26,210 nucleotides of DNA from positions 45,209,971 to 45,236,180 of the forward strand of contig NC_057719.1 in NCBI RefSeq assembly GCF_004010195.1. Direction: 5' to 3'. This document shows positions 820-23,590 of this stretch, piece by piece. Position numbers and translations under genes: made by a program. This DNA is from Chiloscyllium plagiosum (taxonomy: Eukaryota). The notes under the pieces were generated by a model that was given only the letters and a program-made list of their open reading frames with translations, had not been told where the DNA came from and did not search any database. The stretch's first letter is position 1, and each line of letters starts with the position of its first letter.

Positions 820-935
820 ATAAAAATTGAAAGAATCGCAGATGCTATCATTTCTGAGGAAGGGTCATGGGACCCGAAATATTAACTGATTTCTTTTCAC
901 TGATGCTAGCTTTTCTGGCAGCTTCTGTTTTTATT
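820..935 (+). mobile_element. Short Penelope-like terminal fragment with hammerhead-like core
   Basis: CTGAGGA-A-GGGTC-ATGG-GACCC-GAAA-TATT at 854-883, followed by a degenerate tail. Confidence 0.6.
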
Positions 936-1834
936 CATCCTGCTAAAGAAGGGCAAGAATTTAGTTATTCCACATTTCTTTTACTTAAGAATTCTACAAA
1001 TGAGAATAGAGAAATCCATTGTGAAGTCATTGAAAAGTGACCACAGCTTGAACATAGATGCGAAATGAAATGAAATTAGATGGGTATAAGTTCAGGATAC
1101 AAAGGGAATTGAATGATTATTTAAAAAGGATATTGCGCAAGGGAATGAGTAAATGGCAGGGCAATAGCACAATGTCCTGAATGGCCTCTTACTATGCTGT
1201 AACACTTGTGTGCTTCAGAACATTAAGGACTGACTCAACAAAGTATTTTTGTCTTATAGGAATGTACTTTTTCCTTTGAAAAGCAAACACTATTTCTTGA
1301 AGTACTGGTCTTGCACATGTATTTTTCACTTTCCACTGTAACAAATTCCCCATCACACATTTTATAATTAACCTTAAAATACATCTTTTTCAAACTTAAT
1401 GGAACATTCTATCATGCTAACAATCACTATTTCCTAAAGATTCTTTTACACACTTATTAATTAGTCCTCTCATTGCAATTGCATTAATGTTTACATAAAA
1501 ATAGATCTAAAACAGCCAGCGCTCTAGTTGATTTCTTAACATATTGTCCCAGAAAACAGTCTCCTACGTTCAAAGAATTTTTCCTCCATATCATTGACAC
1601 TCTGTACTTTTACCCAATCTAGAAGTAGTTAAGTGTCTCATTATTATTGCATTCCCCTTACTTATATGCATGTCTAATTCTCTGAGTTAGATCATGCTCT
1701 ACATTACCACATTGGTTAGTGTACCACTGCCATTAATGGTTAGTGGGCTATAAACCACTCAATGTTTGCTGCTAAAAGGTACGTTCCAAAAATGAAAAAC
1801 ATTTCAGCTTCCATTTGTGCAGTTGGTTGAAGTA

Positions 1835-2020
1835 TAATGGTTGGGACACAAGAACTCCCTCCCTGCTCCTTTAATTCCATGAAATATTTTAGATCTCTGA
1901 GCACAGAAGCTTGTGTTCAATCCTCATTCTGCAATAAGTATTCCTTCTGTACTGCTTATGTGTGTCAAGCCAATATTGTGTCGTCTTAGAACCCTGTGGT
2001 TTGAACCCATAACCTAATGT
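1835..2020 (-). mobile_element. Degenerate DeuSINE (SacSINE1-like) fragment
   Basis: The reverse complement shows ggttatgggttcaaacc (B-box-like) and agcagggagggagttcttgtgtcc, resembling the copies at about 9100 and 17100. Confidence 0.4.
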
Positions 2021-2282
2021 ACTCCATCAACTTAGGTCATCAAGACCCAGCTTTGCAAACTTTGCTTCGAAACTTCTTGCACAAACTACACGCAAGTTCT
2101 TATTCAGATAGTGCTGTTTGCGAGCAAAAATAAGAGAGCCCTTAAATACATTAAAGTTTTACTTTCTTTAATTTTAAAATTCTTCGATCTTAAGTATGAG
2201 AGGCTGGAGTAAATCAAATAATGTTAATACTTGATCTACACCAGCAAACTTTTAAACAAGCAATAGAAAGAGGCTGCAACCT

Positions 2283-2340
2283 TTTAAGGCACCTTTGGGT
2301 AATAGGAATTGTTTAAGGCACCTTTGGGTAATAGGAATTG
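2283..2340. repeat. Perfect tandem duplication, 29 bp x2
   Basis: tttaaggcacctttgggtaataggaattg occurs twice in a row. Confidence 0.95.
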
Positions 2341-2436
2341 CTTTTCGGGAGGGAGTAATATCACAAAGTATACATTTCTTTTCAATTTAGAATTGCTATT
2401 CCCTAGCAAGAACTTTCCAATTTTATATCCTCTTAC

Positions 2437-2549
2437 CATGCAGACAACGAGGGTAGGCCACAGTTATTCCGTACAGATGTGATCTTTGATCAGGTAGGTA
2501 CTCATCAGTAATTTGGTTACTATCTTTAGATACAACTATAATTCCATCT
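2437..2549 (-). CDS. NID2: Nidogen-2 penultimate exon, end of G3 (113 nt)
   Basis: Boundaries ttccag|A GAT...CAT G|gtaag. Encodes [37 protein letters not shown]. No C-terminal EGF module follows, which fits NID2 rather than NID1. Confidence 0.93.
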
Positions 2550-3691
2550 CTGGAAAAAAAAGCAATTGAATCATTCAGAAATGCTGATTCTATGTTTGGA
2601 GCAACTAGAAAGAAAAAAGTAAAATAGTGGATAGAAGGAGTGATCTTCAGACATTGATCTAATTACGGGCTTCCAATAAATTATAAACGTTAATCTTTGC
2701 TCTGGTGAATCCCTCAATTACATTTTTTTTGAAGTTGTTCTGATATTTGTTATGTATAACATTCCCTGTTTGTATTTGTTTTATTTTAGTCCTTAAAAAG
2801 ACTGCCATGTCTTGTTCCCATCTGCCCACCAGTGGGAGCAATCTTTCATTGTTTACCTACAGTAGGATGCCTAGGTTGCTCTTGGTGTTGGCAGCTCCAC
2901 TCCCCATTATTACATTGCTCTCGCTTTAGGCTTCCCCAAAATCTACTCTCTCCCATACCCATTTCTATTCAATATCTCTGCCCTGCAGTATCCTGGGTGC
3001 TCTCCTAACAGCCCTCCATTTTTACAGTCTGTAACTCCTGAATCACCTCTGTGTCCCCATGCATTATTGTGTGTTGGTTTAGGGAGTACCGTTGTAATAC
3101 TCTCTCAGGCAGTTCTCCAGCACTGGAAGCAGGAGCTGGAGATTTATGTCCTATTTTGAGGCATGATAACATGAAACTGACAGTCCCGGCAGTGATACAG
3201 CAAGAAGGAACACAGGCTACCACATAAGTTGTCCAGGGCTTTTAGGGTGGAGGGGAAATCTGAGACTTCAGGCAGAGGACAGTGAGGGGATGGGGGTGAC
3301 ATCTCGGGAGGCACCCCGATGCATAAAAAGTATTCTTTAAATGAGGGACAGCCCTTCCTTCAAGCCTTTTCCCACTTGGGGTACAAAAAAATGGTTTCCA
3401 ACTTGCAACTAGCTGCCTATGTCAATATGGTCTGGGTAGTGTATTTTCTTAAATCAATAAGCTTGCTAAAACAATCTGTTGACCTTTGATTATTTAACTG
3501 AATATGGCAGGCAGGCTGCCACTTTTGATATCTTGTTAACTCTAATGTATTATGGGAACAGGTCAGCTATAGGTGGGAAGGTAGTAGGCTAGCCATCTGA
3601 CATACTGTTCTTTATTATTCCCCATACCCAGTGGGGCTGCAAAATGTAGGCCATAGTTACACTTAATAGTTCCATTAAACTTTGCTCCTAC

Positions 3692-3815
3692 CTTCTCCAA
3701 TCTGTGTAGTAGAAGTGATTTGCATAAGCAACAATACTAAAGGGATAGTTTAGACCACGTTGCACCACCTGTCTTCTTGTACCATCGGAAAACACACACT
3801 CCAGATCTTTGGTTC
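3692..3815 (-). CDS. NID2: Nidogen-2 exon, G3 (124 nt)
   Basis: Boundaries gaaag|GA ACC...AGA AG|gtagg. Encodes [42 protein letters not shown]. Confidence 0.93.
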
Positions 3816-3970
3816 CTTTCATCAATGAAAGCAAGAAGAAAGGTTGTTAGTATTCAACTGCAAATTTCAAAAGTGTATGCTCTTAATTTTTTTTTGCTTT
3901 AATGCCAACTAACTTGATCTTTTAAAATGTTTCCTTGAATAATAAAGTATATTAAGCCTGTGAAACATAC

Positions 3971-4128
3971 CAGCATCAGCCCAACATAGTTGTGAGGAAA
4001 AAGGGTCAAATGTCAATCCATTTGGCAATCCAATGTCATTTGTAACTAATACCCTTCTGTTAGTTCCATCTACACGAGAAGTCTCAATTTTAGGAGCTTC
4101 ACGATTCCAGTCTGTCCAGTAAAGGTTG
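3971..4128 (-). CDS. NID2: Nidogen-2 exon, G3 YWTD beta-propeller (158 nt)
   Basis: Boundaries ttcag|C AAC...GCT G|gtatg. Encodes [52 protein letters not shown]. Confidence 0.95.
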
Positions 4129-4632
4129 CTGAAGGGAAAGCAGAAGAGCAAGATAATTAATATAAACAAGGCTGTGTATTTAATTGAAAGACAGTGGGAG
4201 CCTATCATATTCCATTTACAAAATAGCCTCAACTAGGACAATGTCAAATATCTTAAAAGGAAACTGTTGATAGTCCCAGATTTTTAAAAATTCTCTGAAA
4301 TTTGCTACGAGTCAAGTAATATGCACATTCAATTTTCTGCTACGTAAATTTTCTCCATTCTATAAACAGTGGAAGCATTTTAGATCTACAGTATATTGTG
4401 CCAACATCTGGGCAACATGTTGCCATAACACCTAATTCAGATGGTTGTCAGATGTTAGCATTTTGGAAAAACCCTGTTGTTTGGTTTACGACTTGCAAAA
4501 GCTATAATCATGTTGTCTACAAGGGCTATGTATGTTTAATTGGTAAGAAAGCATGTCAGATATTTTTTTAAAAAAATCATGTTCTGGAAAATTCTGAAGT
4601 TGTAAAACTTCATACCTTTATATGAAACCTAC

Positions 4633-4804
4633 CCATTAAGAGAGTCCACTGCAATTGCTCTGGGATTTACCAGATCAGTATCAACAAGAACTCTTCGTTC
4701 AGATCCATCCAATTTAGCAACTTCTATCTTATCCAATCCACTGTCAGTCCAAAACATGTTTCTGTGGAGGTAGTCTATGGTTAGTCCTTCAGGACTAATC
4801 AGGT
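4633..4804 (-). CDS. NID2: Nidogen-2 exon, G3 YWTD beta-propeller (172 nt)
   Basis: Boundaries tttag|AC...GG|gtagg. Encodes [58 protein letters not shown]. Confidence 0.95.
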
Positions 4805-5682: not shown

Positions 5683-6114
5683 CTTAATGAAAAATAAACC
5701 AAAGAAGAGTTAATTGTCTGATAAACAACCATTTGGAAAACTGAAAACAGCAATGAATCAATTTTGGAAAACCTTATAAATCTGTATAACAATTGGAGAA
5801 ACTCAAACATGAATGTAAGTTTACACATATTACCTTATTGGAAAGACTCCACAATTTACATAGTTGTGTTGTGGGTGTTAAATGTTTAGTTTTTACAAGT
5901 ATGAAGTTAACTACTTCTGTTATTCATTAATTAGTGCAAAATAGCTGATGCAAAAACATTACGTGACTATTCAAGGAAAGAAAAACTCAAAGTAGCAATA
6001 AAGGAAACAATAAATTACTCATTTTAAAAAAAACATAAGTTGCAGCATAACTTGAGTTACTTTATAATGTTCTAAATTGATTTACAGAATATGACATTGT
6101 CAATTGCAAGATTT

Positions 6115-7030
6115 GTAGCTCAGGTTGAGGTTTAGCGTGTGGGTTTGCTAGCTGAGCTGTAGGTTTGATATCCAGGCTAGGTAACATCATAAGCGGTGAC
6201 CTCCAAGTGAAGAGAAGCTGTTGTCTCCTGCTTTCTATTTATATTGTAGACGACGTTGGTTTTGTCCATGGGTTGTACTGGGGTCTTTAAGTTTGTTAGT
6301 TTTTGTTTGAGTGTGTTGGTGGGTTTGTGTGCTACTAGGATTCCGAGGGTCTTCGTAGTCTGGCTGTCATTTCTGAAACTTCTTTGATGTATGGTTAAGG
6401 TGGTTAGGGTTTCTGGCTGTGTTTGGTCCATTTCAGAAATGACAGCCAGATTACTAAGACCCCTCAGTATCCTAGTAGCACACAAACCCACCAACACACT
6501 CAAACAAAAACTAACAAACTTAAAAGACCCAGTACAACCCATGGACAAAACCAACGTCGTCTACAAAATTCCATGCAAGGACTGCCACACACACCTACGT
6601 AGGACAAACAGGAAGAAAGTTAGCCACCAGGATACATGAACACCAGCTAGCCACAAAAAGACACAACTCTCTCTCCCTCGTAGCCCTACACACGGAGGGA
6701 AAAAAACCCCACCATTTCGACTGGGACAACACATCTATCCTGGGACAGGTGAAGTAAAGACATGCCAGAGAATTCCTAGAGGCCTGGCACTCCAACCACC
6801 ACACCATAAACAAACACATAGATGGTATCTAGATCTACCAACCCCTCAGAAAACGAACAGGAAATTACATCACCACAAACCCCAGGAACCCCATCGAGGA
6901 CAAACCTATAAATAGAAAGCAGGAGATAACAGCTTTGCTTCACTTGGAGGTCGCCACTGATGATATTACCTAGCCAGGTAATGAAACGTCTGGATATCAA
7001 ACCTGCAGCTCAGCGAGCAAACCCACACAC
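6115..7030. mobile_element. Penelope-like retroelement (GIY-YIG endonuclease), inverted two-arm structure
   Basis: The plus arm encodes (frameshifted) SEMTARLLRPLSILVAHKPTNTLKQ..KTNVVYKIPCKDC..YVGQTGRKLATRIHEHQLATKRH. 6244-6378 is the inverse of about 6432-6566, and about 6138-6243 is the inverse of about 6908-7029. Confidence 0.88.
6954..6993 (+). ncRNA. Minimal type I hammerhead ribozyme motif
   Basis: CCA-CTGATGA-T-ATTACCT-AGCC-AGGTAAT-GAAA-CGTC-TGG: full core, 7-bp stem II, ACGT palindrome, GUC site and 3-bp stem I. Confidence 0.75.
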
Positions 7031-7154
7031 ATTATTATCAATTATTTATTCCAATTTGGTCATGATTTCCAAAATATTAAAATGTGACTGTGCTTGAATA
7101 GACAAAAGAACTGGCAGCTTGTTACATAACATAGATGTGCAGTAAATAACAACT

Positions 7155-7207
7155 CGGGTTGGAACGAAGGGTCTGTTTCCATGCTGTACATCTCTATGAC
7201 TCTATGA
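7155..7207 (+). mobile_element. Extreme 3' tail of a CR1/HER1-type LINE
   Basis: gaagggtctgtttccatgctgtacatctctatgactctatga: a CR1-type 3' end with a short tandem tail, related to the HE1 SINE tail. Confidence 0.6.
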
Positions 7208-7330
7208 TAACTTCATTTCTGTGTTTCTATAATGTCTTGCTAATAAGCAGCGAGATTAATTTACTTCGGAAAGGTGATGACCATTCCCTATATTCCTTAG
7301 TTACCTTATATGTCTGGACAAAGCACACAG

Positions 7331-7483
7331 AAAAGCACAGCAGGTCAGGAAGTATCCAAGGAGCAGGAGAATCGACATTTCAGGCATAAGCCCTTCATCA
7401 GGAATGAAGAGCTTATGCCTAAAATGTCGATTCTCCTGTTCCTTGGATGCTGCCTGACCTGCTGTGCTTTTCCAGCACCACAC
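7331..7483. mobile_element. Palindromic mini-element (Penelope terminal derivative) with a hammerhead core on the minus strand at 7374-7401
   Basis: About 65-bp inverted arms (aaaagcacagcaggtcagg.../...cctgacctgctgtgctttt). The minus strand reads CTGATGA-A-GGGC-TTAT-GCCT-GAAA-TGTC. Confidence 0.8.
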
Positions 7484-7798
7484 TTGATACAGTCCTCACT
7501 TTCTCCAAAGCATACAGAAGGCCTAAGTGAAACCAGAGCAAGTGTGAACTGATTTATAACTCAAAAATAATAACCCAAAAGGCAAAAAAAGAGGGCAACA
7601 GTCTGATTTATCAGTCACCTTATAAATGTAAGAATACTTGTTCCACTGGAACTTGTTTAAATTTGACGTACTGGGGGAGTTAGCAGAGATTCTAGTGGTG
7701 GGCAATGGATATATGATGAAGTTTAGTTGGAGTTCCCAGACATCCTTGACAAATTTCCCCTTTTAAAGGCCCAATATAACATGCCAGTTAAAATCACA

Positions 7799-7990
7799 AT
7801 GAGTTCTAGATGTAGGTTTGCTCGCTGAACTGCAAGGTTCGTTTTCAGATGTTTCATCACCATACTAGGTAACATTATCATGAGGCTCCAGATGAAGCCT
7901 CATCCAGAGACTCGCTGATGATGTTATCTAGTATGGTGATGAAATGTCTGAAAATGAAACTTCCAGCAAACCTACATCCAGAATCTCAAC
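7799..7990. mobile_element. Palindromic Penelope terminal fragment with a hammerhead core on the + strand at 7915-7948
   Basis: Inverted arms (gatgtaggtttgct.../...agcaaacctacatc), related to 6950-7029. Core reads TCG-CTGATGA-T-GTTATC-TAGTAT-GGTGAT-GAAA-TGTC-TGA. Confidence 0.78.
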
Positions 7991-8756
7991 CTAGACTACA
8001 AATCTTCCCAAAATAGCTATCAAAGTGAATCCATTTGAAGGTCCCAAACCTCTACTGAATTACAGTAATTAACTCTGATGCAGCAGTGTACCTTCTTTAG
8101 TGGCAGAATGATTCCAGTGATAAAAGTGTTTCTCTTTGCCTCAGCACACCTGATGCCCAGTTGAACCAGAGTCACAAGGCGTTACTTCGGTTGAACAGAC
8201 CAATGTGAGCAGATGCCCCCTGGGCTATCCCTGCAGCAACCAGTGGTCTGTCCTGGCAATTTTGGCTGTCTCCAAGATTGGGAACCAGGGCTTGGACCTT
8301 GCTTGTGATTGATTCACAGACCTCTGAACCATCAGTGTCAGCAGTGGCTCCATGAGGTAAAGTTAAGTGCTCTCAACAAATCAAAGCATGAAAGACAACA
8401 TTGTGTTCCAACCATGACTACTTGTCAAAAGTAATTAATCAGTAGGAAAACACCTGAGTTCATGAAAGGCACTTTAAAGGAAGGCTTGCATTTATAAACT
8501 TGACAGTAAACATCTGTTCAATCCTCCCACTGTACCTACTGTGCTATATTGCTACTGTTCCTCAATTTATCTCATTTGCATAGTGATATTAATGTTCCTG
8601 TGGTAATATTTGATTTATATGCATGGGTGCAATTTACTGATACTGGTCCATTTACACTTGCTAAAATATGAAAGTAACCTGATATTTTCCTTTCACAAAC
8701 ACTAACATTCTCTGCAGATATTCCAATGGAGAAGCTTATAAAAATAGATACTTTAC

Positions 8757-9653: not shown

Positions 9654-9875
9654 ATGCAGGTGGACTGCCGGGTTCAGTCCTAGTTCCTTGAATTTCCCGA
9701 CCATCTTTATCGACACACCAACAGTAACCACTGTTTCCATGGCATTGCAAAGGACTAAATTCCCCAAACTCATTACATTCGGGAATGTACTGATCATTAG
9801 CTGGTCTGCCACTGTAATGTTCCAGAAGACTCAGTCTCCACCGTTCGCACACAGTTGGTTGTCGCTGTGGGGGTT
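9654..9875 (-). CDS. NID2: Nidogen-2 exon, last TY domain before G3 (222 nt, phase 1-1)
   Basis: Boundaries tttcag|AA...GCA T|gtgag. Encodes [75 protein letters not shown], matching the vertebrate NID2 second TY domain (CERWR..LLEHY). Confidence 0.95.
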
Positions 9876-10719
9876 CTGAAATACATTAATACACTGTAGT
9901 TAGTGTAAAATCTTTTGTTGAATGAAACAATTGTTTGAATTCTTTATTGCAATCCAGTTTTATGAAGAGGATGCAAAGTAATCTATCCTAAAACAATAGA
10001 TTGGGAAAAAAAAGAGATTTAATCACAGACCTTAGTGGGGGATACTTAGATATCAGATATATGTTTAATTACATTTAGAAAAGGGGTAAAAGAAATGTAA
10101 CAATAGCTGGGTTCCAGGGATAAACAAATTTGAGCAAACCACAAGTTTAAAAACAGACCATTCACAACAGTTAAAGAATATATAACCAAACTGAGACATA
10201 AAAATTATAGAAGGAATGTAAAAACTAAAAAGAAAAAGCTGCGGTAAGGGCTTTGTAAGCACATATGAAGAGATACTGTAGTTAAAAAAGACGAGTTGGT
10301 GATAAAGGTTATTTTGTATTGAATCTGAGGAAATGACAGAGAAGGTAACTAAGTATTTCTCTGTCTTAGAGGTATGTGAAACAGGCTGTTTTGTGGGGGA
10401 GGATGTGGAATAATTACCACTAGACCAAAAAAAATTCAAAGAGAGACCGCACTTTAACATTTCTTAAGTTGGCTAAAAATAGAAAACCAATCAAGCCCAA
10501 ATGATATATATCACAAAATACGTACGGAAATTATAAAGGAGGTAGCAGAGGATCAACTATAATTTTCTAAAAACTATGAAAATTGTAACTGTGCCAAGAC
10601 ATGCAGTGTTCCAACTGTTAAATACTAGATGAGAAAAGAAATTTTAACAGATGAAGAATAATCTTCAAAATCTGAGATTAAATCATTGATTAGTTTCGAA
10701 AGGCATGGGTGACTCTGCA

Positions 10720-11280
10720 ATAATGATAGAGGACAGCTTTAAAAGACAGGCCGTCTCTGTGCCCAGCTTCAGTCTACAGCCAATTCGGTTAACTTCATGT
10801 GATGTCAATAAACAGCTGGAGGCAATCAATATTGCAAAGGTCCTGACAACTTTTGACAAAAGTACTGAAAATAGCATCACCCCTGTGGTCAGGTTTTACA
10901 GCTACAATGTTGGCATCTATCCACCAATAAGGAAACATTGCCATGGTATGTCTTTTACATAAGCAGAAAAAATCCAATCCGGCCAATTGCCACCCCATCA
11001 GGCTACTCTCGATCATCAGTAAAGTGATGGAAGGAGTCACCAACAGTGCAATCAAGCAGCATCTGCTCAGCAATAACCTGCTCAGTTACACTCAATTTGG
11101 GTTCTGCCATGGCTACTCAGCTCCTGATCTTTGTTCAAATGTGGACAAAATGATTGACTTAGAGGTAGGTTGAGCATGACTTCCCTTGATGTCAAAGTAG
11201 CAGTTTACCCAGTGTGGCATCAAAGAGCTCTATCAAACCCAAAGTGAATTAGGAAAAATCCCCCCACTGGTTGGAGTTAT
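10720..11280 (+). mobile_element. Non-LTR retrotransposon RT fragment (second LINE family)
   Basis: SNPANCHPIRLLSIISKVMEG..IKQHLLSNNLLS..QFGF.HG.SA corresponds to the YRPISLL / QFGF RT motifs; degenerate. Confidence 0.8.
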
Positions 11281-12344
11281 ATATATCTCACTGTGCTCTC
11301 TGGTCCACTACAAAATGGCGGTGGAATAGGAAACTCTAGCCAGAGCTCATCCACCTCTGTCCATTCTCCTTTTCTTCTCTTTTTCTCAATGTTTTTTCCT
11401 TCTTCTCTCCTGGCCTCTGACAACGACAACTTCCAGCCTGACTTAGCAGCCTCCCATAGTCACCTTCCTGCCTGGTGTGGCGACCTCTCAGTCTGGCACC
11501 CTCTGCTACGCCGGACTGTCTGAAGTGATCTCCCAGCCTCCTGGTGAAGCCCAGCACGGACTGGAACCAGGGCCTGGTGCGGTCTGAAGGCTAGGTGCCA
11601 GCATAGTCTGGGTTGGTAGAAACTTTTATTTCTGCAGTGCCGAACATTTTATTTCTCTATTTTCTGAGATCTTGTAACTAACGAAGCTGTACTTAAGTAC
11701 CTTTGGACCTAACATGATACTGTAAGTGGCATCATATAAACTGTTCACTATTTTCATTGAGTATATGTGACAATAAAGCTGATTCATCATTCACAAAGAA
11801 CAACCATGGCACAACTACATGTGGTTGACACTGTCTCCTGTCACATGTAATATATCACACTGTTTTAAATAAATCAACCCACAGCATTAATTGCTCCCTG
11901 ATGCCAATTCGCTATTAGACCATTGTCATTAACATGACATGGAGGAACATTAAAGGAAACCATCATGCAGATGAGGCCAGTCATGTTGAAAATACAATTT
12001 GCTGGTAAGCACACAAATCTCTGTAGAGGGGACAGTTTAAGTCACTTGAAAAGAAATCAGGGTGTGTGCCAGATTGATAGCAAGCAAGAGAAGATCAAAG
12101 GCATTTTATCAAATGTCCTTGTTTAAAAAGACAGACATCTTAATAGAATTTAAGATTTCTCACTAATGTCCAGAGGTATGGTTCTTGATGTGGTTGTGGC
12201 TGATGTTAAATAATGAGCCACTAAGATTTGCTTAGCTGTTGGAAATGGAGACGAGACAGCCATAACACATCAGGATCACATCAAGAGCTAAGATATCCCC
12301 AAAAGATCTAGACCACATTAGACCAACTGGAATCAGATTAAACT

Positions 12345-14115
12345 TATAACATAGATAAGTACTGCACAGGAGAGGGCCTTGGGCCACGGTGTTGTGCCGA
12401 GGTTTAATCCTAATGTAAAATCTAATAACTTAATCTATGCACCCTTCAACTCACTGCTATCCATGTGCATGTCCAGCAGACGCTTAAATGTCCCCAGTGA
12501 CTCTGCTTCCACTACCACCACTGGCAATGCATTCCATGCATTCACAACGCTCTGCATAAAGAATGTCTCCTCTATACCTTTCTCCTTAAAACTATGACTC
12601 CTCATAGCAGTCAATCCTGCCCTGGGGAAAAGTCTCTGGCTGCTGACTCTATCTATTCCTCTCATTATCTTGTGTACCTTGATCAGGTCTCCTCTCTTCC
12701 TCCTTCTCTCCAGAGAGAAAAGTCTGAGCTTATTCGACGTTTCTTCATAAGGCAAGCCCTCCAGTGCAGGCAGCATCCTGGTAAACCTTCTTTCCTATAG
12801 TAGGGCTACCAGAACTGGACACAATATTCTAAGTATGATCTCACCAGGGACTTCTAGAGCTGTAGCAAAATCTCACGGCTCTTAAACTCTATCCGCCTGT
12901 TAATGAAAACCAAAACACCAATTGCTTTCTTAACAACCCTATCCACTTGGGTGGCAACTTTGAGGGATCTATGTACTTGCACACCCAGATCCCCCAGGAA
13001 TACTGTCTTTAATCCTATATTCAGCATTTGAGTTCGACCTTCCAAAATGCATCACTTCGCATTTATCCAGGTTGAACTCCATCTGCCATTTCTCAGCCCA
13101 ACTCTGCATCCTGTCTATGTTGCACTGCAGCCTGCAATAGTCCTCGATTTTATCAACGGCACCTCCAACCTTTGTGTCATCTGCAAATTTACTAATCCAT
13201 CCCACAACGTCCTCATCCAAGTCATTTATAAAAACTACAAAGAGCAGAGGCCCAAGAACAAAGCCCTGTGGGACCCCACTCATCACTGACCTCAGGCAGA
13301 ATACGTTCCATCTACAACCACTCTCTGCCTTCTGTCAGCCAACCAATTCTGAATCCAGATAGCCAAATCTCCCTCTATCCCATATTTCCTGACTTTATGA
13401 ATGAGCCTAATCATGGAGAACCTTATCAAATGCCTTGCTGAAGTCCAGATACACCACATCCACTGCTTGACCTTCGTTGACCTGTCTTGTCACCTCCTTA
13501 AAGAACTCAATAAGGTTTGAGAGGCATGACCTGCCCCTCACAAAGCCATGCTAACTGCCTTTTATCACACTATGCTTTGCCAAATAGTCATAAATTTAGA
13601 ATTCTTTCCAAAACTTTGCTGACCACAGACGTAAGACTAACTGGTGTGTAATTGCCTGGGATTTCCCTATTACCCTTCTTGAAAAGAGGAACAACATTCG
13701 CCTCCTTCCAATCCTCCGTTACGACTCCCGTAGAGAGTGAGGAGGCAACGATTCTCGCCAGCGGCTTAGCAACCTTCTTTCTCGCTTCCTGGAGCAGCCT
13801 AGGATAAATCTGATCTGGTCCAGGAACAACATTCGCCTCCTTCCAATCCTCCGTTACGACTCCTGTAGAGAGTGAGGAGGCAACGATTCTCGCCAGCGGC
13901 TTAGCAACCTCCTTTCTCGCTTCCTGGAGCAGCCTAGGATAAATCTGATCTGGTCCTGGGGACTTATCAATCTTAATTTTTTCCAAAATTTCCAGCACAT
14001 CAACTTCATCAGTCTTGATCTGGTCAAGACTGTATCCCAGCTCCTCAAAGTTTTCATTCACAACAAGATCCCTTAGTGAAAATCGAAGCAAAAAACTCAT
14101 TTAAGGTTTCCCCTA
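12345..14115 (-). mobile_element. 5'-truncated CR1/HER1-type LINE (ORF2 reverse transcriptase), degenerate
   Basis: KSPGPDQIYPRLL, GNYTPVSLTSVVSKVLERI, SGVPQGFVLGPLLF, KFADDTK, QMEFNLDKC, LFSLERRR.RGDLI and VVNAWNALP motifs, with frameshifts. Confidence 0.93.
13687..13956. repeat. 135-bp in-frame tandem duplication inside the LINE
   Basis: 13687-13821 versus 13822-13956, 2 mismatches seen. Confidence 0.93.
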
Positions 14116-14667
14116 TCTACACTTGTGTGGTCCTTAACTGGATATCATATCGTTCAGAGAGAAGCTATCAAAATCCATGGTCTATTTTATGAACAAGGGC
14201 AGAAAAATGGGCTTATTGTGATTTTTCAGATAGAAAGCTAGCAAAAAAAATTGCTGAGTCAGCAATCACATCCACTCCAGTGGAAGCTTTCCATAAAGAC
14301 TTTTAAGACAAAGCAAAAGCTTTTGGCATTAAGGAATTATCAAAGGATGGATGTAGGTATGAAGGGATCCTCAAAGGTTGACAATGTTTATTGGTCTTTA
14401 GCACAACTCAACTGTTGACAAAATCAATCATTGAAACACCCAAATATACCAGGAGAAGTGGAAGATATGCCTTCTGAATGCACCAAGATAAGGCCCAGGT
14501 TTTAATCAATTTTGCAAGGCATCAACAGAAAAGGCCATTGTCAAAGCCTGTGCAAAGTACCAACCTAAACAGACCACACACAAGGACTATGTTCAAACTA
14601 CCTTTGAACTCTGCAGTCATTCTGATTGGAAATTTACTAGAACAGGTTATGAAAAACAAGTGTGCCT

Positions 14668-15465
14668 CAGGAAAGGATGCCCTGAGGCACAGCCTACCAG
14701 CAAGACCATGCAGACGCTAAGACAACGAAGAATGGTAACCGCATAACCATCGCCAGGCAGGGGTGTTCCCTCCCAGTTGGGGAACATTTCAGCCATTAAG
14801 GGCATTTGGCCTCAGATTTTCAGGTAACGTTCTCCAATGCGGCCTTCAAGATACACAACAACACAGGATCACCGAACAGAAACTAATAGCTAACTTCCAT
14901 ACCCATGTGGATGGTCTCAACAGTGATTTTGGGTTCATGTCACACTACATATAACCTCACCATACTGTTCTGTATTTGTAAAATCTTCCTTACTGTTCTG
15001 TTTTGACATGATCACCTTGATAACTTGTTATCTCTCTACCTTAATTAGTTCGTACAGTTGTGGATTACTTGTTACTTTGGTTAGACCCTCATCATGCGAC
15101 TCTTATACCATGTTATATTATTTCAGCCACTTGGATCCTACTTTTGATTTTTTTGTAATTTACTTGGATGTTAGGTCACCCCTTCACATGCTATTCAGCT
15201 GTTGACACTTTACTCACATCGTTTGACACTTTTAATCATCTGCAAAGACTTGTTATTCAGCCTATTGACACTCCACTCTCACTATTTGTATTTATCTTTT
15301 GACACTCTTAATTACCTGGAATTATCATGCCATTATCCCTCTACATATAGATTCTGTGCCTGTGCGCTGCCCTCCACTTCATCTGATGAAGGAGCAGCAC
15401 TCTGAAAGCTTATGATTTCAAATAAACTTGCTGGACTATAACCTGGTGTTGTGTGACTTCCAACT
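14668..15465 (+). mobile_element. Penelope-like element 3' fragment (GIY-YIG C-terminus plus terminal region)
   Basis: Frameshifted RKGCPEA..KTMQTLRQR..IARQGCSLPVGEHFS..EQKLIANFHTHVDGLNSDFGFMSHYI*. Ends with a hammerhead motif and AATAAA. Confidence 0.75.
15379..15415 (+). ncRNA. Minimal hammerhead ribozyme motif
   Basis: TCAT-CTGATGA-A-GGAG-CAGCA-CTCT-GAAA-GCTT-ATGA: 4-bp stem I and an AAGCTT palindrome. Confidence 0.7.
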
Positions 15466-16457
15466 ATGTTCAATGTTGTGACTGTGCTGCCAGTTAGTAA
15501 GCAATGTAGCACACAAATGAATAGGTTTGCTATAATGGCTGCATTATAACATATGTAGTATATTGTGTTTTACTGCTTTAAATAAACAAATCCACAAAGT
15601 TAATCAATCTCTGAGGAGCAACTGATTATTGGACAATCATCATTGAAATGATACAGCAGAGACCTGAAATTCTTTACAGTATCACTGAGGGCTGTGGGTT
15701 GTGATGGGAGGTCAAGCCCTGTGCAGATTGCACTCTGCTTGTATTCGATCTCACGTCTCCACACAAGCAAGTTTTGGGATATGGAGTTAATCCAGTGAGA
15801 ATAAAAGCCAGACTTCAAAATATTGCTGATAAACCAAAAGGGCAATATTCAAATATTTCGAATTATATTCGGTACCTTTCCATTCCAATACTTACTTCAG
15901 AGGATGCACTGTTTGCCACACGATAATGTTTGTGTCAGCATAAAAGAGCTACAATCACCAAACTAACTAAATTCTCTTTACATGTGCCTCTTATTCTGTG
16001 ATTATTTTTTTTTGACATAGTCTGATAAAAGATCCAAATGGTGTTCTGTCAGTAAATTTAAGATAAGAATAAAAGGACATTGGGTGGTCCAAAGTTATAC
16101 AACAGAAAAGTAATATTTATTGGTTTGGTGTGAAAATATTTATATATTAAAAATATAAAACTGCATAATTTTATATATAAATAACTAACACTCTAGAGTT
16201 GTATTTATATCTGGCAACATTTGTACCCTTCAGAGAAAATGCACTGTTTTAACCAACTCTTTAGATCTGTTTCTGAATGGCTTTATAAAGATCAAACCAA
16301 TGCTTAAATGCCATCAAATAACTTGGTGGGTCTGCGGAAGCATTAATGCATTTCAACACATTCCCGATAAAATCTCCCACATTTTTCCCTCAACAATGAA
16401 TACCCTTCCCCAGCAATGCCAAGCCCTCCCTCAACTTTAATGGCTATCCCATCCCCT

Positions 16458-16800
16458 CTAGAATCCCTACAGTGAGGAAACAGGTGCTTTGGCCCAACAA
16501 GTCCACACCAACCCTCCAAAGGGTAACCCACCCAGACCCATGCCTCTACCCTATTATCTGACATTTACCCTGACTAATGCACCTAATCTACACATCCCTG
16601 AACACCATGGGCAATTTAGCATGGCCAATTCACCTAACCTGCACATCTTTGGATTGAGGGAGGAAACCAGAGCACGTGGAGGAGACCCACGCAGGCACGG
16701 GGAGAATTTGCAAACTCCATACAGACAGTCGTCCAAGGCTGGAATTGAACCCAGGTCCCTGGCGCTGTGAGGCAGCAGTGCTAAACCACGGAGCCATCCC
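16458..16800 (-). mobile_element. HE1-type SINE (V-SINE superfamily, elasmobranch), near full length
   Basis: A-box gtggtttagcactg, B-box gggttcaattcc, V-domain tggagtttgca.attctccccgtg.ctgcgtgggt...caaagatgtgcaggttagg, and a HER1-like 3' tail. Confidence 0.9.
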
Positions 16801-17094
16801 AAAAAATAGCATTGCCCATGATGAACAGAATATTAATACATCCAACAATAAAAATCGTTCAGATGTCTGACTGCTCCCATTGGGCTGCTGGCAATGTACA
16901 CTCTCCACTTGCCTCCCATCAAATGTAGCTGAGCAGTTGAAATTTGGCCTCTGATGTTCAATCTACTTCCATGCTCAAAGTTATTCAGAATGACAATAAC
17001 AGACACTTCACTGCCATTGAGATAATGAATTCTTAATTCATTTAGCTTTCCTGAAATTTCCCAGCAACACTGTTCAGTTGTATTACAGTTGGGT

Positions 17095-17535
17095 GTGAGC
17101 TATAATTCAATGCCTCTGAGTTTAAAAAAAGATTGTTGGTTCATGCCCCACTCCAAAAACTTAGGAACAAATTCAAGATAAACACTTCAATATAGTGGTA
17201 AAAGAGCACTTGACAGTCAATGTATTGTCTTTCAGATCACACTGATTCCATCTTACCTCTTGGTCCAGCATCTGCAGTCCTCACTTTCGCTGAGTTGATT
17301 TTAACCTTGTAAAAGAGCCTATAGAATGATTTTGAAGAATAGCAAGGAAATTCTAAGCTGTATTTATCAGCAGTAATCATTTAAAAGTAGCGTTTTGAGA
17401 CACTATCACATTGTTGTTTGTGTAATGTTGCTATGCATTTCCCATATTATAAGTGATTACACTTCTAATACTTCATTGTACTGTAAAGCACTTTAATGCC
17501 CTCAGCTCATGAAAACGCCAAGATCCTTTATTCTT
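17095..17535 (+). mobile_element. Degenerate DeuSINE (SacSINE1-like), interrupted at about 17262-17310 by a Penelope-tail fragment
   Basis: ggttcatgccccactcca, ctatcacattgttgtttgtg and tacacttctaatacttcattgtactgtaaagcacttt. The insert ccagcatctgcagtcctcactttc matches 18944-18968 and the inverse of 22680-22708. Confidence 0.55.
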
Positions 17536-17576
17536 GCTACAATGTGATCATTTTTCTGAACTCAAAACTAACTGAC

Positions 17577-17819
17577 CTGACTGCCCACACTGTGGTTGAC
17601 TAGTTCCAGGGGGTGTCCTTGTCCCAGGAATTTCCTGTCCTCTTTCATCCACACACCAGCAGTGGCCTGTACTGCCGTGGCACTGCAGAGGCGTGAAGTT
17701 CCCCTGCTCATCACACTCAGGGATATGGATTCCACGGAAGTGTGATCCATGCTGATTCACCTCTGCATGTAGCCTCTCCCGATGCTGTTCACAAGCAGTC
17801 TTTGGCCTTTCAATCGATT
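17577..17819 (-). CDS. NID2: Nidogen-2 exon, thyroglobulin type-1 repeat copy C (243 nt, phase 1-1)
   Basis: Boundaries gcttag|AA...TCA G|gtcagt. Encodes [81 protein letters not shown]. Confidence 0.92.
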
Positions 17820-17965
17820 CTAAGCAAACAAAAATAAATTTTCATGAGACAAGAGTGCAAATGTAACAATGATTTCTTGTACAATGTCTATTGTCACCAG
17901 TCTCATTGTAGAAAAAGGGATTGAAGTGAAGCCAATACTACTTCTGAACTCAAAAACTAACTGAT

Positions 17966-18160
17966 CTGGCTGTCCACACTGTGGTTGACCAGTTCCAGGA
18001 ATTTCCTATCCCCTTTCACCCACACATCAGCAGTGGCCTCTACTGCTGTAGCATTGCAGAGGCCTGAAACCTTCCTTCCCCCCCACCTCTCCTCTTCACA
18101 CTGAGGGAGGTAGGCCTCAACAAGAGCAGGAGATCCACACACACTCAGCACTGCTTGCAG
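17966..18160 (-). pseudogene. Degenerate TY-repeat pseudoexon of NID2
   Basis: Reads LQAVLSVCGSPALVEAYLPQCEEE, then a +14 nt frameshifting insert, then FRPLQCYSSRGHC*CVGERG*EIPG, an 18-nt deletion, and TGQPQCGQP. The donor is mutated to AT (ccag|atcagttag). Confidence 0.88.
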
Positions 18161-18835
18161 CCAGTGAAAAGAATGGAAAGAAATAGCAAGGTGTTCCTCC
18201 ACTCACAGACTGGTTTTCTCTCATGCTTGTTGTTTACAGGTTCACAAGTAAACCTATCAGCAACAGACATGGCACAGGAACTAGCCTGTGATTGGAGGAG
18301 CAGTAAACAGCGAGGAAAGTAAATGCCAGCAATGAATGAGTTGCCAGGAAGCAGAGGATGCCAAGTTTGAGGATCTGTAGGGAGTTGGAATGCTGACGTC
18401 TGGGAGCTTGGGTGCTTGGACACATGCCGAAGGTGCTGAGGGGGAAGATGGGGTTGGTGCCTGCAAGAGGTCTAAAGGATAGGGATAGGGCTGGGTTGAG
18501 CTGGGGAGGCCACAAGGATGTGGCAAAGGTTTGAGAGAGAGGGAGAGAGAGGCTGCAAAGGGGGTGGGAAAGAGAAAGAGAAGCTGCAATGTGGGCAGGA
18601 GAGAGAGAGAGGGAGACAGCAGCCTGTTGAAATCCATCTCCCTCAGTTTGTGAAGAATTCCTGAACTCACTACCAGCAATCAACTCAGCTCTGGCAATTT
18701 GTTCTTCTGCTGTCCTCCCTTCTGTCTGGTTGCTCACTGAAAACATGTAACTTTCTCCTCTCTGCTGACCATATCAGCTTTAGCCTTTTGTTCCCATGGA
18801 ACCTCTCCCTCTCTCTCTTCCTGGCTAAAAAAACC

Positions 18836-18970
18836 TGGAGTCGAGAGTGTGGCGCTGGAAAAACACAGCATCCGAGGAGCAGGAGAATCGACGTTTCAGG
18901 CATAAGCCCTTTATTAGGAATCACCACACTCTCGATTCTGATCTCCAGCATCTGCAGCCCTCACTTTCTT
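18836..18970. mobile_element. Fold-back Penelope terminal mini-element with an inactivated hammerhead core (minus strand, 18890-18917)
   Basis: Same family as 7331-7483. Core reads CTAATAA-A-GGGC-TTAT-GCCT-GAAA-CGTC; tcgagagtgtgg and ccacactctcga are inverted. Confidence 0.75.
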
Positions 18971-19225
18971 CCAAAAAAAACTTAGAAACTGAAAAGCTGT
19001 CCCAGTCAAATAGTTGCACTTGCCTTTGTTTGAGTGTATGGGTCAATGAATGCTGACGCGAGACCTCCTGCCTCATGGTAAGCAAGTCACATTGGCTTGA
19101 TGTCAGGTAGATGTTAGAGCATCTATGACTGTCTACGTTGGACCATTTTACTTTGAATTAAAAAATTCGTCCAAAGCATAATTATCTTACAAAAACTCAG
19201 ATTCCTAACAAATTAGAACACTGAC

Positions 19226-19471
19226 CTGGCTGTCCACACTGCCTTTGACCAGTTCCAGGTGGTGTCCTCGTCCCAGGAATTTCCTGTCCCCTTTCGTCCA
19301 CACACCAGCAGTATCCTGTACTGCCATGACATTGCAGAGGCCTGAATTTCCCCTCCTCATCACACTCAGGGATATAGGCTCCAATTAGAGGTTGTGATCC
19401 ACGCAGACTCAGCTCTGCTTGCAGTCTCTCTCGGTGCTGTTCACAAATAGTCTTTGGACGTTCAATGCGTT
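19226..19471 (-). CDS. NID2: Nidogen-2 exon, thyroglobulin type-1 repeat copy B (246 nt, phase 1-1)
   Basis: Boundaries cactag|AA...CCA G|gtcagt. Encodes [82 protein letters not shown]. Confidence 0.92.
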
Positions 19472-19789
19472 CTAGTGAGATAGAAAGAAATTTTTGTTTT
19501 GTAAAAGTGCAAATCCCTCCATTTCCATTGTGTAACGTCAATTTCCTTACATTGCCTACTGCCCATGCCTGATCTTCAGTAATGAAATCCACTGTCAGTT
19601 CACAACATTACTGCTATGGGATTCCGTATCAGAGTCGCATGGTTAATTAAGGAGGGTCTGCATCACAACTAAAACTTTCCTCTCCAAGTCCTTTGCCAGA
19701 ATTGAAAGGGGATTTCTTTTAAAAATTAAATTTCTTTTGTAAATGTTTCACAATAGATTGATTTCATTTTATTCATCTGTACAGACTGA

Positions 19790-20345
19790 AACAGTCCATG
19801 TCTAATTGCAACACGACCTGGATAATATCCAGGTTTGGGTTGACAAGCGACAAGTAACATACAGCCCTCACGTGCCAGGCAATGACCATCTCCAACAGGA
19901 CAGAATCTGACCTTTGCCCCTAAACATTCATTGGCATACTACTGTTGAATCCTCCACTATCAACATTCTGGAAGTTACCATTAATAGAATCTGAATGACA
20001 GTAGCTATAAAAACACTGTAGCTAGGAATCCTGTACTGAGTAACTCATATCCTGACTCCAGAAAGCCATCCACCATCTACAAGGCACAAGTCAGGAATGT
20101 GACAGAATACTCCCCACTTGACAGGAAGAGTACAGCTCTAACAACACTCGAAAAGCTTGACATCTTCAGGTCAAAGCAGCCCAGTTGATTGGCACAACAT
20201 CTACAAACATTCGCTCCCTACACCACTGCTGCTCAGTAGTACACACTACTGCTATCTACAAGATACACTAGAAATTCATTAACACTCCTGAGGACACCTT
20301 CAAAACTCATGACCATCTAGAATGATAAGGCGGCATGGGAAGACC
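19790..20345 (+). mobile_element. LINE ORF2 3' fragment (probably the family at 10720)
   Basis: Degenerate QHDLDNIQVWVDK.QVT and TIYKAQVRNVTEYSPL. Confidence 0.7.
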
Positions 20346-20369
20346 AGTTGAAGGTAATTTGCAGGTGGA

Positions 20370-21620
20370 TTTCCTGCATTTCCCTTGCATTTGCTGCCAT
20401 TGTCCTTCAAAGGTTTAGAAGGTGCAGTCTAAGGAGACATGGTGAGTTATTACAGTATCTTGTAGAGGTTGTACCTCGTGTGTGTGTCATGGTGAAAGAA
20501 GTGAATATTGAAGATGGTGGATGAGGTGCCAATCAAGTAGCTGCTTTATCCTGGATGGAGTCAAGCTTCTTGAGTGTTCTTGGAGCTATACTCATGCAAG
20601 CAAGTAGCAAGTATTCCAACAGATTACTGACTTGCAGATGGTGGATAGATGGAGAGATAGAAGGGGAGTAACTCAGTGCAAATTTCATAGCCTCTGACCT
20701 GCTTTGTAGCTACCGTATCTCTATGGTTGGTCCAGTTTGGTTTTTGGTCCATAATGGTTGGGGAGGGCTGGTTTCAGTGATGGTTATACTATTAAATATT
20801 AAAGAACAATGGTTAGATTCTGTCTTGCTGGAGATGATCGTTGCCTGGAGTTGCGTGGTGTGAATGTTGATCAGGTCTTGATAGAGATGGATGCACAGTG
20901 CTTCAGTATCTGTGGAGTTGCAAATGGTGTTGGACATTGTTTACCGGTCATTGCACATTCTCAGTTCTGACGTTCTGATGGAGAGAAGGTCATTGATGAA
21001 AGCAGCTAAAGATAGTTGGGTTAAGGACACTATTCTGAGGAAATCCTGCAGAGATGTCCTGGACTTGCAATGTTTGAAGTCCAACAACATCAGGTATAAC
21101 TCCAGTCAGTAGAGAGATTTCTCCTGATCCCCACTGACCCCCATTTTGTGAGGGCTCTCTGATGCCACATTTAGTCAAATGCAACCTTGTTGTCAAGGGC
21201 AGTCACTCTCATTTCATCTTTGGAGTTCAGCTCTTTTTGTTCATTTTTCAACTAAGCCTGTAAAACTGAGTATCAGTGAGCTTGTTATTCCTGTGCAAGA
21301 GCTGCTTTGTCAATGACTATTTTCATCGTTTTACTTAGGATTTAGAGTAGACAAAGCAGTAATTGGCTGGTTTGCACTGGCCCTGCTTATTGTAGCCAGG
21401 ATATATCTGGGCAATTTTCTGTATTGTTGGGTGTATGCCAGTGTTGTGGCTGTACTGAAATAGCTTGACTAGGGACAAGTTATGGAGTACAAGACTTCAG
21501 TACTATTGCTGGAATATTGTCAGAGTCCTTGGCCTATGTAGTCTCCTGTACCTTCAGCTATTCCTCGATAATGTGTGGAGCAAATCAAAGTGATTGAAGA
21601 GTGTAACCTGTGATGTGGGA
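20370..21620 (-). mobile_element. LINE ORF2 fragment, inverted relative to 19790-20345
   Basis: DISAGFPQNSVLNPTIFSCF (the GVPQGS motif). 20500-20660 is a diverged inverse of 20040-20210. Confidence 0.7.
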
Positions 21621-21719
21621 ACATCAGGATGAAATGTTGGTCCTGTTGTTTGAAACTATAGGTCAGTCGGCTTATCTTCTGTCCCAGAGAGCTTATGAGA
21701 ATCCATGATAAAAAGTACT

Positions 21720-22095
21720 TCGATTGCACATCATGAAAGAATCAACCAGTGTCAACATGTTTTTTTTGAAAGGGTAATTGTTAGCTAGCAAATTGGAGTT
21801 TTGTGAGAAAATAACAAGTAAGCTAGATAAATGGGGACCTACAGATGTGGTTTACTTGGATTTCAAAAACTGCATTTGATAAGGTGCCAATGAAGTTTTT
21901 TGACAAAATAAGGGAACATGATATGAGAAGTAAAATATTAGCTCGGTTAAAGCAATGGCTAGTGAAAAGGAAGCAAAGACTGGATAAGTGGGTCATTTTC
22001 AGCATGTTAAGGTCTGCCACAGGAATCAGTGTTGGGTCTCAGTCATTTACAGTCTGTTTCAATGACACAGACACAGGGACTGAATGTATGCAAGC
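21720..22095 (+). mobile_element. CR1 RT fragment
   Basis: Degenerate DVVYLDF.KAFDKVP...LARLKQWL..RKQR. Confidence 0.7.
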
Positions 22096-22329
22096 TACTT
22101 TTTAAATTAATTCATGGGATGTGGGCGTCGCTGTCTGGCCAGTATTTATTGCCCATCCCAAGTTGTACTTCAGGAAGTGGTAGTTAGCTGCCTTTTTGAA
22201 TCGCTGCAGTCCCCCATGACTTTAAGGATAGAATTCATGGATTTGACCTGCCTTTCATGAACCAATACTGCAACTGCCCGATGCAACAATTTCTATCCAG
22301 GTATCTCGATATTTCTTCCTTGATGATAG

Positions 22330-23195
22330 AATCATGCATTTTCCCCACTGCAGAATTTAAGCTAATGGGCATATAGTTACCCGCCTTTTGTCTACCTCCT
22401 TTTTTCTTAAAACAGTGGCATCATATTTGCTGTTTTCCAATCTGCTGGAACCATCTCAGAGTTCACTGAAGTTTGGTAAATTACCGAGTGCATTTGCTAT
22501 TTCTCGTGCCATCTCTTTTAGTATCCCAGGAATCATTCCATCAGGGCCAGGAGACTTGACTACCTTCGGCCCCATTAGCTTCCCAACACTACCTCTTTAA
22601 TGATAATGATTGTTTCTAGGTCCTCACCTGCCATAGCCTCCTTTTCATCAATTATTGGCACATTATTAGTGTCAAAGGAGAAAGTGAGGACTGCAGATGC
22701 TGGAGATCAGAGCTGAAAATGTGTTGCTGGAAAAGCGCAGCAGGTCAGGCAGCATCCAAGGACCAGGAGAATCGACGTTTCGGGCATGAGCCCTTCTTCA
22801 GGGCTCATGCCTGAAACCTCAATTCACATTATTAGTGTCTTCCACTGTGGACACAGACACAAGATACGTGCTAAATCTCTCGGCCATTTCCTCATTTCCT
22901 ATTATTAAATCCCCTAAGGGGCCAATGTTTACCTTTGCCACACTTTTGCCTTTTATATATTTGTAGAAACTTTTGCTATCTGTTTTTAGGTTCTCAGCTA
23001 GTTTACTCTCAATTTTTCTGACCTTTCTTTATAATTTTTTTATGGCTTTCTGTCAACCTTTAAAGATTTCTTAATTTTCAAGTTTCCCACTAATTTTTGT
23101 CACTGTGTATGCATTAGCCTCCTTTATTTTCTGAATTGTCAATGGCTAATTGTCCTTTTCCTACAGTTCTGCCTTTTCACTGGTATATACTTTTG
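22330..23195 (-). mobile_element. CR1 ORF2 fragment (endonuclease-RT linker)
   Basis: The reverse complement reads KSPGPDGMIPGILKE and ANMMPLF.EK; interrupted by the insertion at 22674-22824. Confidence 0.7.
22674..22824 (-). mobile_element. 151-bp hammerhead-bearing fold-back mini-element with a 15-bp target-site duplication
   Basis: cacattattagtgtc at 22659-22673 and 22825-22839. Minus 22774-22801 reads CTGAAGA-A-GGGC-TCAT-GCCC-GAAA-CGTC. Confidence 0.85.
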
Positions 23196-23204
23196 CTGTA
23201 GACA

Positions 23205-23590
23205 GGCAGGAGGTTGGGAGAACACAGTAAGCAAGGCAGCATCAGGAGGTGGAGGAGTCGACGTTTCGGGTTTAACCCTTCTTCAGGACTGGGGAGTGGA
23301 TGTGGGGGGAGCTGCAGATAAAGGGGTTAGCAGGAGCAGGGTGGTGAAGTGGGGATGGGTGAAGACAAGCAGAAGGTATGACCTGGTTGGTCAATGGGAT
23401 GAATGAATCCACTGCTGGGAGCAGTGGCAGGGAGGGACTGTGAAGGGAGTCGGGGGATGAGGAGGGAGGTTACTTGAAATTGGAGAACTCAGTGTTGAGT
23501 CCTCCAGGCTGTAGTGTGCCCAGGCAGAAGGTAAATTGTTGTTGGCGCTATGGTTTGTTTTCGCAATGGAGGAGGCCAAGGCCACATTTG
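23205..23590 (-). mobile_element. Penelope-like element 3' fragment
   Basis: FCLGTLQPGGLNTEFSNFK* (GIY-YIG C-terminal GLN motif), then a pyrimidine-rich UTR and a hammerhead. Confidence 0.75.
23256..23290 (-). ncRNA. Minimal type I hammerhead ribozyme motif, intact, sense to NID2
   Basis: AGTC-CTGAAGA-A-GGGT-TAA-ACCC-GAAA-CGTC-GACT: perfect 4-bp stem I, 4-bp stem II and a GUC site. Confidence 0.78.

Follow-up and report, generated by a model that had tools for sequence, protein, structure and literature searches.

What does it mean that a single gene of the shark Chiloscyllium plagiosum harbours a series of sequences resembling the catalytic core of hammerhead ribozymes? The question arises from a stretch of 26,210 nt (contig NC_057719.1, positions 45,209,971 to 45,236,180 of the forward strand), here called the window and numbered from its first letter, for which an original prediction, made from the letters alone, proposed a dense set of minimal hammerheads from several families of Penelope-like elements (PLEs) within one gene, and from this density a very large genome-wide ribozyme load. 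We conclude with high confidence that genuine minimal type I hammerhead cores are present, that they likely derive from eight independent insertions of about five PLE families into the introns of a nidogen gene, and that nearly all of them are predicted to be inactive.

Hammerhead cores in nidogen introns

Seven cores of the form CUGANGA-N-stem II-GAAA-NN-UH are present in the window, four on the plus and three on the minus strand, and they lie where they had been placed by the original prediction, namely at 854-883(+), 6957-6990(+), 7374-7401(-), 7915-7948(+), 15383-15411(+), 22774-22801(-) and 23260-23286(-). A looser descriptor (CUGANGA, an optional extra base, a stem II of at least 3 pairs and GAAA-NN-UH), applied to both strands, returns seven matches in the window and no eighth exact core, as compared with a mean of 0.05 and a maximum of 1 across 300 dinucleotide shuffles. 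The segment 10325-10381 was considered as an eighth core and rejected, since it has a 3-bp stem with a long loop and fails at NN-UH. The published descriptor for minimal hammerheads (Cervera & De la Pena) additionally demands at least 3 contiguous stem I pairs and is satisfied by 4 of the 7 cores (6957, 7915, 15383 and 23260), the corresponding figures for 1000 shuffles being a mean of 0.002 and a maximum of 1; contiguity of stem I is broken by an internal mismatch in 854 and 7374 and by loss of a strand in 22774.

With no more than about 11 fixed letters in the core and no score from Rfam, the motifs could be taken for chance matches to a short pattern, but we consider the probability of this to be negligible, since shuffles never gave more than one match, all cores lie within repeats, and the pairing of stem I, for which the looser search did not select, holds. 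Indeed 23 of the 28 stem I positions (the first four of each core) are paired, 21 of them Watson-Crick, and sliding the 3' strand by 1-3 bases as a control reduces the pairing to 6-12 of 28. Among the seven cores, four different pair types are found at positions 1.1-2.1. CUGANGA, a stem II of 3-7 bp and GAAA-NN-UH are present in every core, as is an extra nucleotide after CUGANGA and ahead of stem II. Positions 15.2 and 16.2, the complementarity of which is a feature of a palindromic dimer stem III, are Watson-Crick complementary in five cores and U-G in two, and the 10.1-11.1 pair is G-C in three, G-U in three and A-U in one. Stem III had been described as reduced to the palindromes ACGT or AAGCTT, and three cores do carry ACGU and one AGCU, but one has AUAU and two have the non-palindromic AUGU. 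It should be mentioned that these seven rows are not independent, families A and B (see below) being represented twice each and the upstream stem I strand of 22774 being non-native.

By exon edges all seven cores are intronic and belong to one gene, as had been proposed. This gene runs from 640 to 24080 on the minus strand and is the 3' part of a nidogen, with Pfam matches to thyroglobulin type-1 exons followed by LDL-receptor class B exons and with nidogen 1npe as its best single-stretch match in PDB (E 1.4e-36); from the domain order we take it to be nidogen-2. Core 854 lies in the last intron, and 3 of the 7 cores are sense to the host pre-mRNA, that is, there is no strand bias.

Insertions, families and the state of the copies

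The ten motifs (seven cores and three broken ones) resolve by repeat search into eight insertions of about five families, A to E; inverted arms are found in five of the eight, and the tail is one-sided. The family A insertion at 6107-7030 consists of an inverted pseudo-long terminal repeat (pLTR) arm with tail at 6108-6243, an inverted piece of open reading frame (ORF) at 6241-6349, and a 5'-truncated GIY-YIG end at about 6421-6865 followed by the pLTR, the tail of the inverted arm being missing from the direct copy. Its core has a 10.1-11.1 pair decayed to A-U, and a broken core in the inverted arm (6170-6195, minus strand) has a 15-nt deletion across GAAA and the cleavage site. A second subtype of family A forms the palindrome 7800-8020, with core 7915-7948(+) and a broken core at 7845-7882(-). 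The broken copies of the original prediction all exist, but those at 6170-6195 and 7845-7882 belong to the 6957 and 7915 insertions as their inverted arms on the minus strand and are not independent, and two more partial mirror arms, 7404-7472 and 22800-22825, were outside its list.

Family B is represented by short insertions. One is the palindrome 7333-7505, with core 7374-7401(-) and the partial mirror arm 7404-7472(+); another, 18837-18973, has a broken core (18890-18917, minus strand) with two core changes and an inverted tail arm (18922-18969) starting 4 nt upstream of it; and in 22674-22824 the mirror arm 22800-22825 covers core 22774-22801(-) and its cleavage site, the native stem I strand being absent. 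In both family B palindromes the apex of the fold-back lies inside the core, in 7333-7505 within CUGAUGA. The family B copies on the same strand lie at distances of 3.9 and 11.5 kb, separated by unrelated sequence, and a coreless scrap at 17264-17288(+) consists of family B tail only (repeat search). A short insertion at 821-936 in the last intron represents family E, and its core 854-883(+), antisense to the host, has a stem II of 5 bp, G10.1-C11.1, AUAU and a broken third stem I pair. The family C core, 23260-23286(-), is sense to the host and has a stem I of 4 bp, G10.1-C11.1, ACGU and a GUC site, and the family D core, 15383-15411(+), is antisense and has a stem I of 4 bp, AGCU, G10.1-U11.1 and U as H17. 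A perfect target-site duplication of 15/15 nt (22659-22673/22825-22839) flanks insertion 22674-22824, and one of 13/14 nt (7319-7332/7506-7519) flanks 7333-7505; that of the family E insertion (10/11 nt, 810-820/937-947) is marginal, since the best background value across 60 unique sites is 10. The other five insertions have duplications of 8-10 nt, which are inside the background and were not counted.

The coding remnant of family A is 65% identical to the shark PLE protein P0001 (tblastn, E 7e-63). Its relatives are named GIY-YIG domain-containing protein, the closest being from the carpet sharks Stegostoma, Chiloscyllium and Hemiscyllium, and relatives P0002, P0004 and P0008 carry PF00078, the reverse transcriptase of the window copy having been lost to 5' truncation. 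With GIY-YIG upstream of the pLTR, an inverted 5'-truncated arm and a one-sided tail of 30-40 bp, family A is by its sequence anatomy an endonuclease-positive PLE; we presume it to be Poseidon-like. Three cores had been proposed to lie downstream of GIY-YIG remnants, which is true of 6957 but unconfirmed for the other two. Ahead of the family D core, a decayed and frameshifted remnant at 14600-14954(+), seen in three-frame translation, is a candidate PLE endonuclease end; its nearest named Atlas cluster has GIY-YIG in 15% of members (score 0.81), which is a weak lead only, and a search for relatives of the piece 14823-14951 was empty. Ahead of the family C core, translation gives a 37-codon remnant with one stop at 23473-23583(-), in which the GIY-YIG motif itself is absent and which we take, unconfirmed, for a candidate PLE endonuclease C-terminus. 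Among the 17 window proteins scanned against Pfam, none of the seven candidate PLE frames matched, family A included.

Coding and ribozyme sequence appear to overlap in family A. The reading frames of P0001, P0004 and P0005 extend at their C-termini into the hammerhead motif or beyond it, with the stop codon within stem II in the window copy, and the family-majority ATG at 6963-6965 would begin the next ORF in another frame, so that the hammerhead overlaps coding twice in family A (6957-6975). In addition, a piece of the PLE endonuclease, either exonised or an annotation artefact, is found in two shark proteins, P0003 and P0006, the database names of which are MAP3K7 isoform X3 and CUE domain-containing protein 2 isoform X1.

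The window copies are decayed relative to their families. Depth of public contigs (see below) is 99% G on 6965 and 96% A on 7914, among 40 of 286 differences listed, and the family majority thus pairs more canonically than the copies in the window. Stem II, which had been said to differ in sequence while keeping its pairing, pairs in all seven cores; the opening A-U of 6957 was rejected as covariation, being decay of a single copy. With G6965, stem II also opens with an ATG, from which the cut site is 28 nt away. Within their insertions, stem II has a predicted probability of about 0 in 7374, 7915 and 22774 and of 0.0001 in 6957 (whole insertion), since in these four the mirror arm pairs with the core. 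For 15383 no hammerhead fold is predicted, and 854 is predicted to keep stem II and not stem I. For 23260-23286 the hammerhead is the lowest-energy fold, the predicted probability being 0.62 for stem II and 0.47 for stem I, and this is the sole copy that combines every feature with a predicted hammerhead fold and a location on the host-transcribed strand.

This copy raises the possibility that some sense-strand cores cut the host pre-mRNA, with 23260 acting either in trans with an ACGU-bearing RNA or in cis with the 22774 site 486 nt downstream. On paper the 23260 core and the 22774 site form 4 stem III and 4 stem I pairs, and repeat-derived RNA exists, 4,662 of the 12.96 million reads of run X21, a poly(A) single-cell library, having matched 5950-8150. 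These reads come from other copies, since 97% of them run into unlike sequence, and neither a pile-up of read starts or ends nor a cleavage signal was seen in X21, although the library type makes this a weak test. Furthermore, the 22774 site is predicted to be buried in its own hairpin (probability near 0), cleavage by minimal hammerheads is weak even in dimeric form (PMC4209133), the case known from the green anole needs an element protein (PMC11167929), and the cores show the lack of strand bias noted above. We therefore regard cutting of the host transcript as very improbable, and the copies in the nidogen introns look like neutral debris for the host gene. Opposite-strand arms were also rejected as dimer partners, since a transcript would contain a single sense copy along with a single antisense copy, and these two pair mutually.

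Abundance and origin of the copies

Public contigs from runs X3 and X9, representing two species, were placed on 5950-8150 at 80% likeness, and 160,846 (X3) and 167,281 (X9) of them fell on these 2.2 kb, the repeats concerned being families A and B together with an unrelated repeat end (7158-7207). Single-copy contig depth is 14-16 and unique bins have 7-69, as compared with a summed depth of 6.1 million (X3) and 5.7 million (X9) for the core bin of family B, 16.0 and 14.5 million for its tail bin, and 1.5 and 1.8 million for the four family A core bins together, family B being the deepest repeat in 5950-8150. The raw depth ratio corresponds to 4.8x10^5 family B and 1.2x10^5 family A cores, and allowing for a two- to sevenfold overcount to 7x10^4 to 2.4x10^5 and 2x10^4 to 6x10^4, respectively, although summed depth is no copy number and the overcount factor for overlapping short contigs is an assumption. 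The estimate covers families A and B, families C, D and E being outside the placed stretch, and it counts remnants whether intact or not. The data thus point to family B copies of order 10^5 (range 7x10^4 to 5x10^5), an estimate of relics and not of active ribozymes. The 50-bp repeat end 7158-7207, which presumably is a 3' end of CR1 or short interspersed element (SINE) type, has a summed depth of 7.7-8.6 million; in other copies it is frequently fused straight to an end of family B, with joints from 7203-7207 to 7404-7485.

The window has a density of 153 descriptor matches per Mb (95% range 42-391, n=4) and was chosen for its density, which is one reason to suspect that it is unusually dense and that the genome-wide count is an ordinary one of about 10^4, the more so since summed depth can overcount where short contigs overlap. 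We find this unlikely, since even a sevenfold overcount leaves the lower figures above in both species and since so many contigs fall on merely three repeat types within 2.2 kb. For comparison, the published counts of minimal hammerheads are about 4,000 in coelacanth and 9,000 in Xenopus (PMC4209133) and are exceeded by an estimate of 10^5 or more. Relative to genome size, these counts amount to about 1.4 and 6 per Mb, respectively; 126,247 retrozyme-type motifs have been reported from the axolotl genome (PMC7229834), which measures 28 Gb (bioRxiv 10.64898/2026.07.22.740005). A high count in sharks was to be expected, since the motif class, its link to PLEs and its mass dispersal have been known since 2014 and an expansion of Penelope elements has been recorded in the introns of the whale shark (bioRxiv 10.1101/443036). 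A hammerhead count for any shark genome was not found in the literature searched, the coverage of which excluded most subscription papers, and neither copies of the families nor related loci turned up in two scans of metagenomes. The proposed very large load is hence supported in terms of numbers, depth in two species pointing to a figure above published ones, but the term 'ribozyme load' is an overstatement, since only one of the seven cores is both intact and predicted to fold as a hammerhead, four are predicted to be locked in fold-back duplexes and two of the broken copies are mirror arms.

How would such copies arise? In the mechanism we favour, the pLTR of each family would carry the core and reverse transcription would begin at the element tail, which follows the core at a distance of about 100-130 nt, a start at the tail having been measured for the anole element (PMC11167929); since it starts downstream, the shortest copies would tend to include the core, which would explain the density. 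The template would be uncleaved RNA, since no copy stops at the cleavage site and all of them continue across it into the core, in line with the anole element (PMC11167929). The mirror arm may then be made by fold-back with self-priming or by a template switch, following a proposal of Arkhipova et al. 2013 (PMC3846280). By analogy with the literature, the core of the parent element would cleave weakly as a dimer via the 4-nt palindrome or with help from an element protein, and after insertion the copies would undergo neutral decay, with CpG-type changes at 11.1 and 15.2, or be sequestered by the mirror arm.

The short copies could alternatively be no truncations at all, families B and E being self-standing non-autonomous mini-elements, SINE- or retrozyme-like, which have the hammerhead as their beginning and produce short transcripts of their own for a PLE enzyme to copy. 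This is suggested by the four family B and E insertions, which are all 115-175 bp and ORF-less and in which family sequence ends 0-7 nt upstream of the core (for E by eye), by the depth of family B, and by the fact that 7 of 15 joints listed, with 1086 further joints unlisted, end at 7404-7406, 3-5 nt upstream of the family B core. The reference arm however ends near 7407, so that joints further upstream are invisible, and 199 RNA reads hold family-like sequence upstream of 7406. Furthermore, family A copies reach 17-47 nt or more upstream of the core with steady depth (0.57 vs 0.53 million), and tandem units as in retrozymes are not seen. Mini-elements are accordingly a possible but rather unlikely source of the short copies, and truncation during reverse transcription from the tail is preferred.

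A bolder version of the truncation mechanism is that carpet sharks hold several hundred thousand hammerhead-headed Penelope stubs, at a density at least 10x that published for any animal, in which reverse transcription from the tail of an upstream pLTR runs off the RNA at a 5' end situated just a few bases upstream of the core, with fold-back following. We hold this tentatively and as a lead only, because the joint table is biased by the end of the reference arm and mostly unlisted, and because of the RNA reads continuing upstream and the upstream extension of family A without a drop in depth. If true, the stubs would map the transcription start of the element, prove an uncleaved template genome-wide and constitute the largest natural mutation library of a ribozyme. 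In any case, copy ends clustering at the core bear on the open question of the role of hammerheads in Penelope transposition, and if the cores are as abundant as estimated they offer a very deep natural alignment for asking about ribozyme selection in active elements.

A number of points speak against the conclusion that these are PLE-derived hammerhead cores, present in large numbers and mostly inert. Rfam covariance models found no hammerhead among 3 matches at E up to 5, these being chance matches, and none of the short folds of the seven cores was a hammerhead more stable than shuffles. The covariation seen is one across families, from seven non-independent rows. Target-site duplications above background are found in just 3 of the 8 insertions. 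PLE coding is confirmed for family A alone, families B and E having none in the window and the remnants of C and D being candidates. The inactivity of the copies is a folding prediction, and summed depth is no exact copy count.

The surrounding nidogen gene has features of its own. At 9660-24080 on the minus strand it has four intact thyroglobulin type-1 exons, at about 23815-24080, 19205-19470, 17550-17820 and 9660-9875, three of which are 82-88% alike in DNA, and a decayed, frameshifted copy at 17957-18170. Nidogens usually have one or two thyroglobulin type-1 domains; the exons seen here are a recent tandem duplication beyond that number, and more may lie outside the window. The window also contains decayed non-LTR reverse transcriptase remnants at 12350-14100, 10700-11270 and 19800-22100 (RVT_1 matches, Pfam), in which 13687-13956 is a tandem duplication of 135 nt and 10897-11281 forms inverted pairs with 21095-21454, as well as an imperfect 111-nt palindrome (71%) at 18192-18302 without a hammerhead core and, in the last intron, an exact 29-nt tandem duplication at 2283-2340.

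Comparison with known systems

The motifs fit the published minimal hammerheads of PLEs, as had been proposed. They share with those described by Cervera & De la Pena 2014 (PMC4209133) the core, the extra nucleotide before stem II, GAAA-NN-UH, a short stem I and the palindromic 15.2/16.2, and likewise the occurrence of several families per genome, mostly as single dispersed motifs of high variability, and of opposite-strand pairs 100-700 bp apart. G10.1-C11.1 of the published motif is kept in 3 of the 7 window cores, and the family A majority has G at 10.1. Differences are that stem II is 4 bp in families B-D and 7-8 bp in the published motifs, and that some 4,000 and 9,000 motifs were published, as compared with an estimated 10^5 or more remnants here; no shark was found in the searched parts of the main text and supplement of that paper.

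With Poseidon PAc of the green anole (Frangieh et al. 2024, PMC11167929) the family A majority shares a start codon that opens stem II, the cut site being 28 nt on as compared with 26 in PAc, as well as element ends about 65 and 95-100 nt past the cut site with an optional tail and a template that is apparently uncleaved. Cleavage of PAc has however been assayed and is protein-assisted and dispensable for insertion in vitro, whereas the present case is argued from sequence. Insertions of endonuclease-positive PLEs (PMC3846280; Craig et al. 2021, PMC8557442) similarly combine a 5'-truncated copy with an adjacent inverted arm, a junction palindrome, a tail at one end and target-site duplications, but an apex inside the catalytic core, as in both family B palindromes, was not found described in the passages of these papers that were consulted.

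Non-LTR retrozymes (Cervera & de la Pena 2020, PMC7229834; bioRxiv 10.64898/2026.07.22.740005, in which one chondrichthyan was sampled) resemble the present copies in being high-copy, PLE-related and equipped with type I hammerheads. They are however tandem repeats with canonical or near-canonical ribozymes, whereas the window copies are dispersed, minimal and often inverted, and a retrozyme identity was rejected on the ground that the window has no head-to-tail tandem units.

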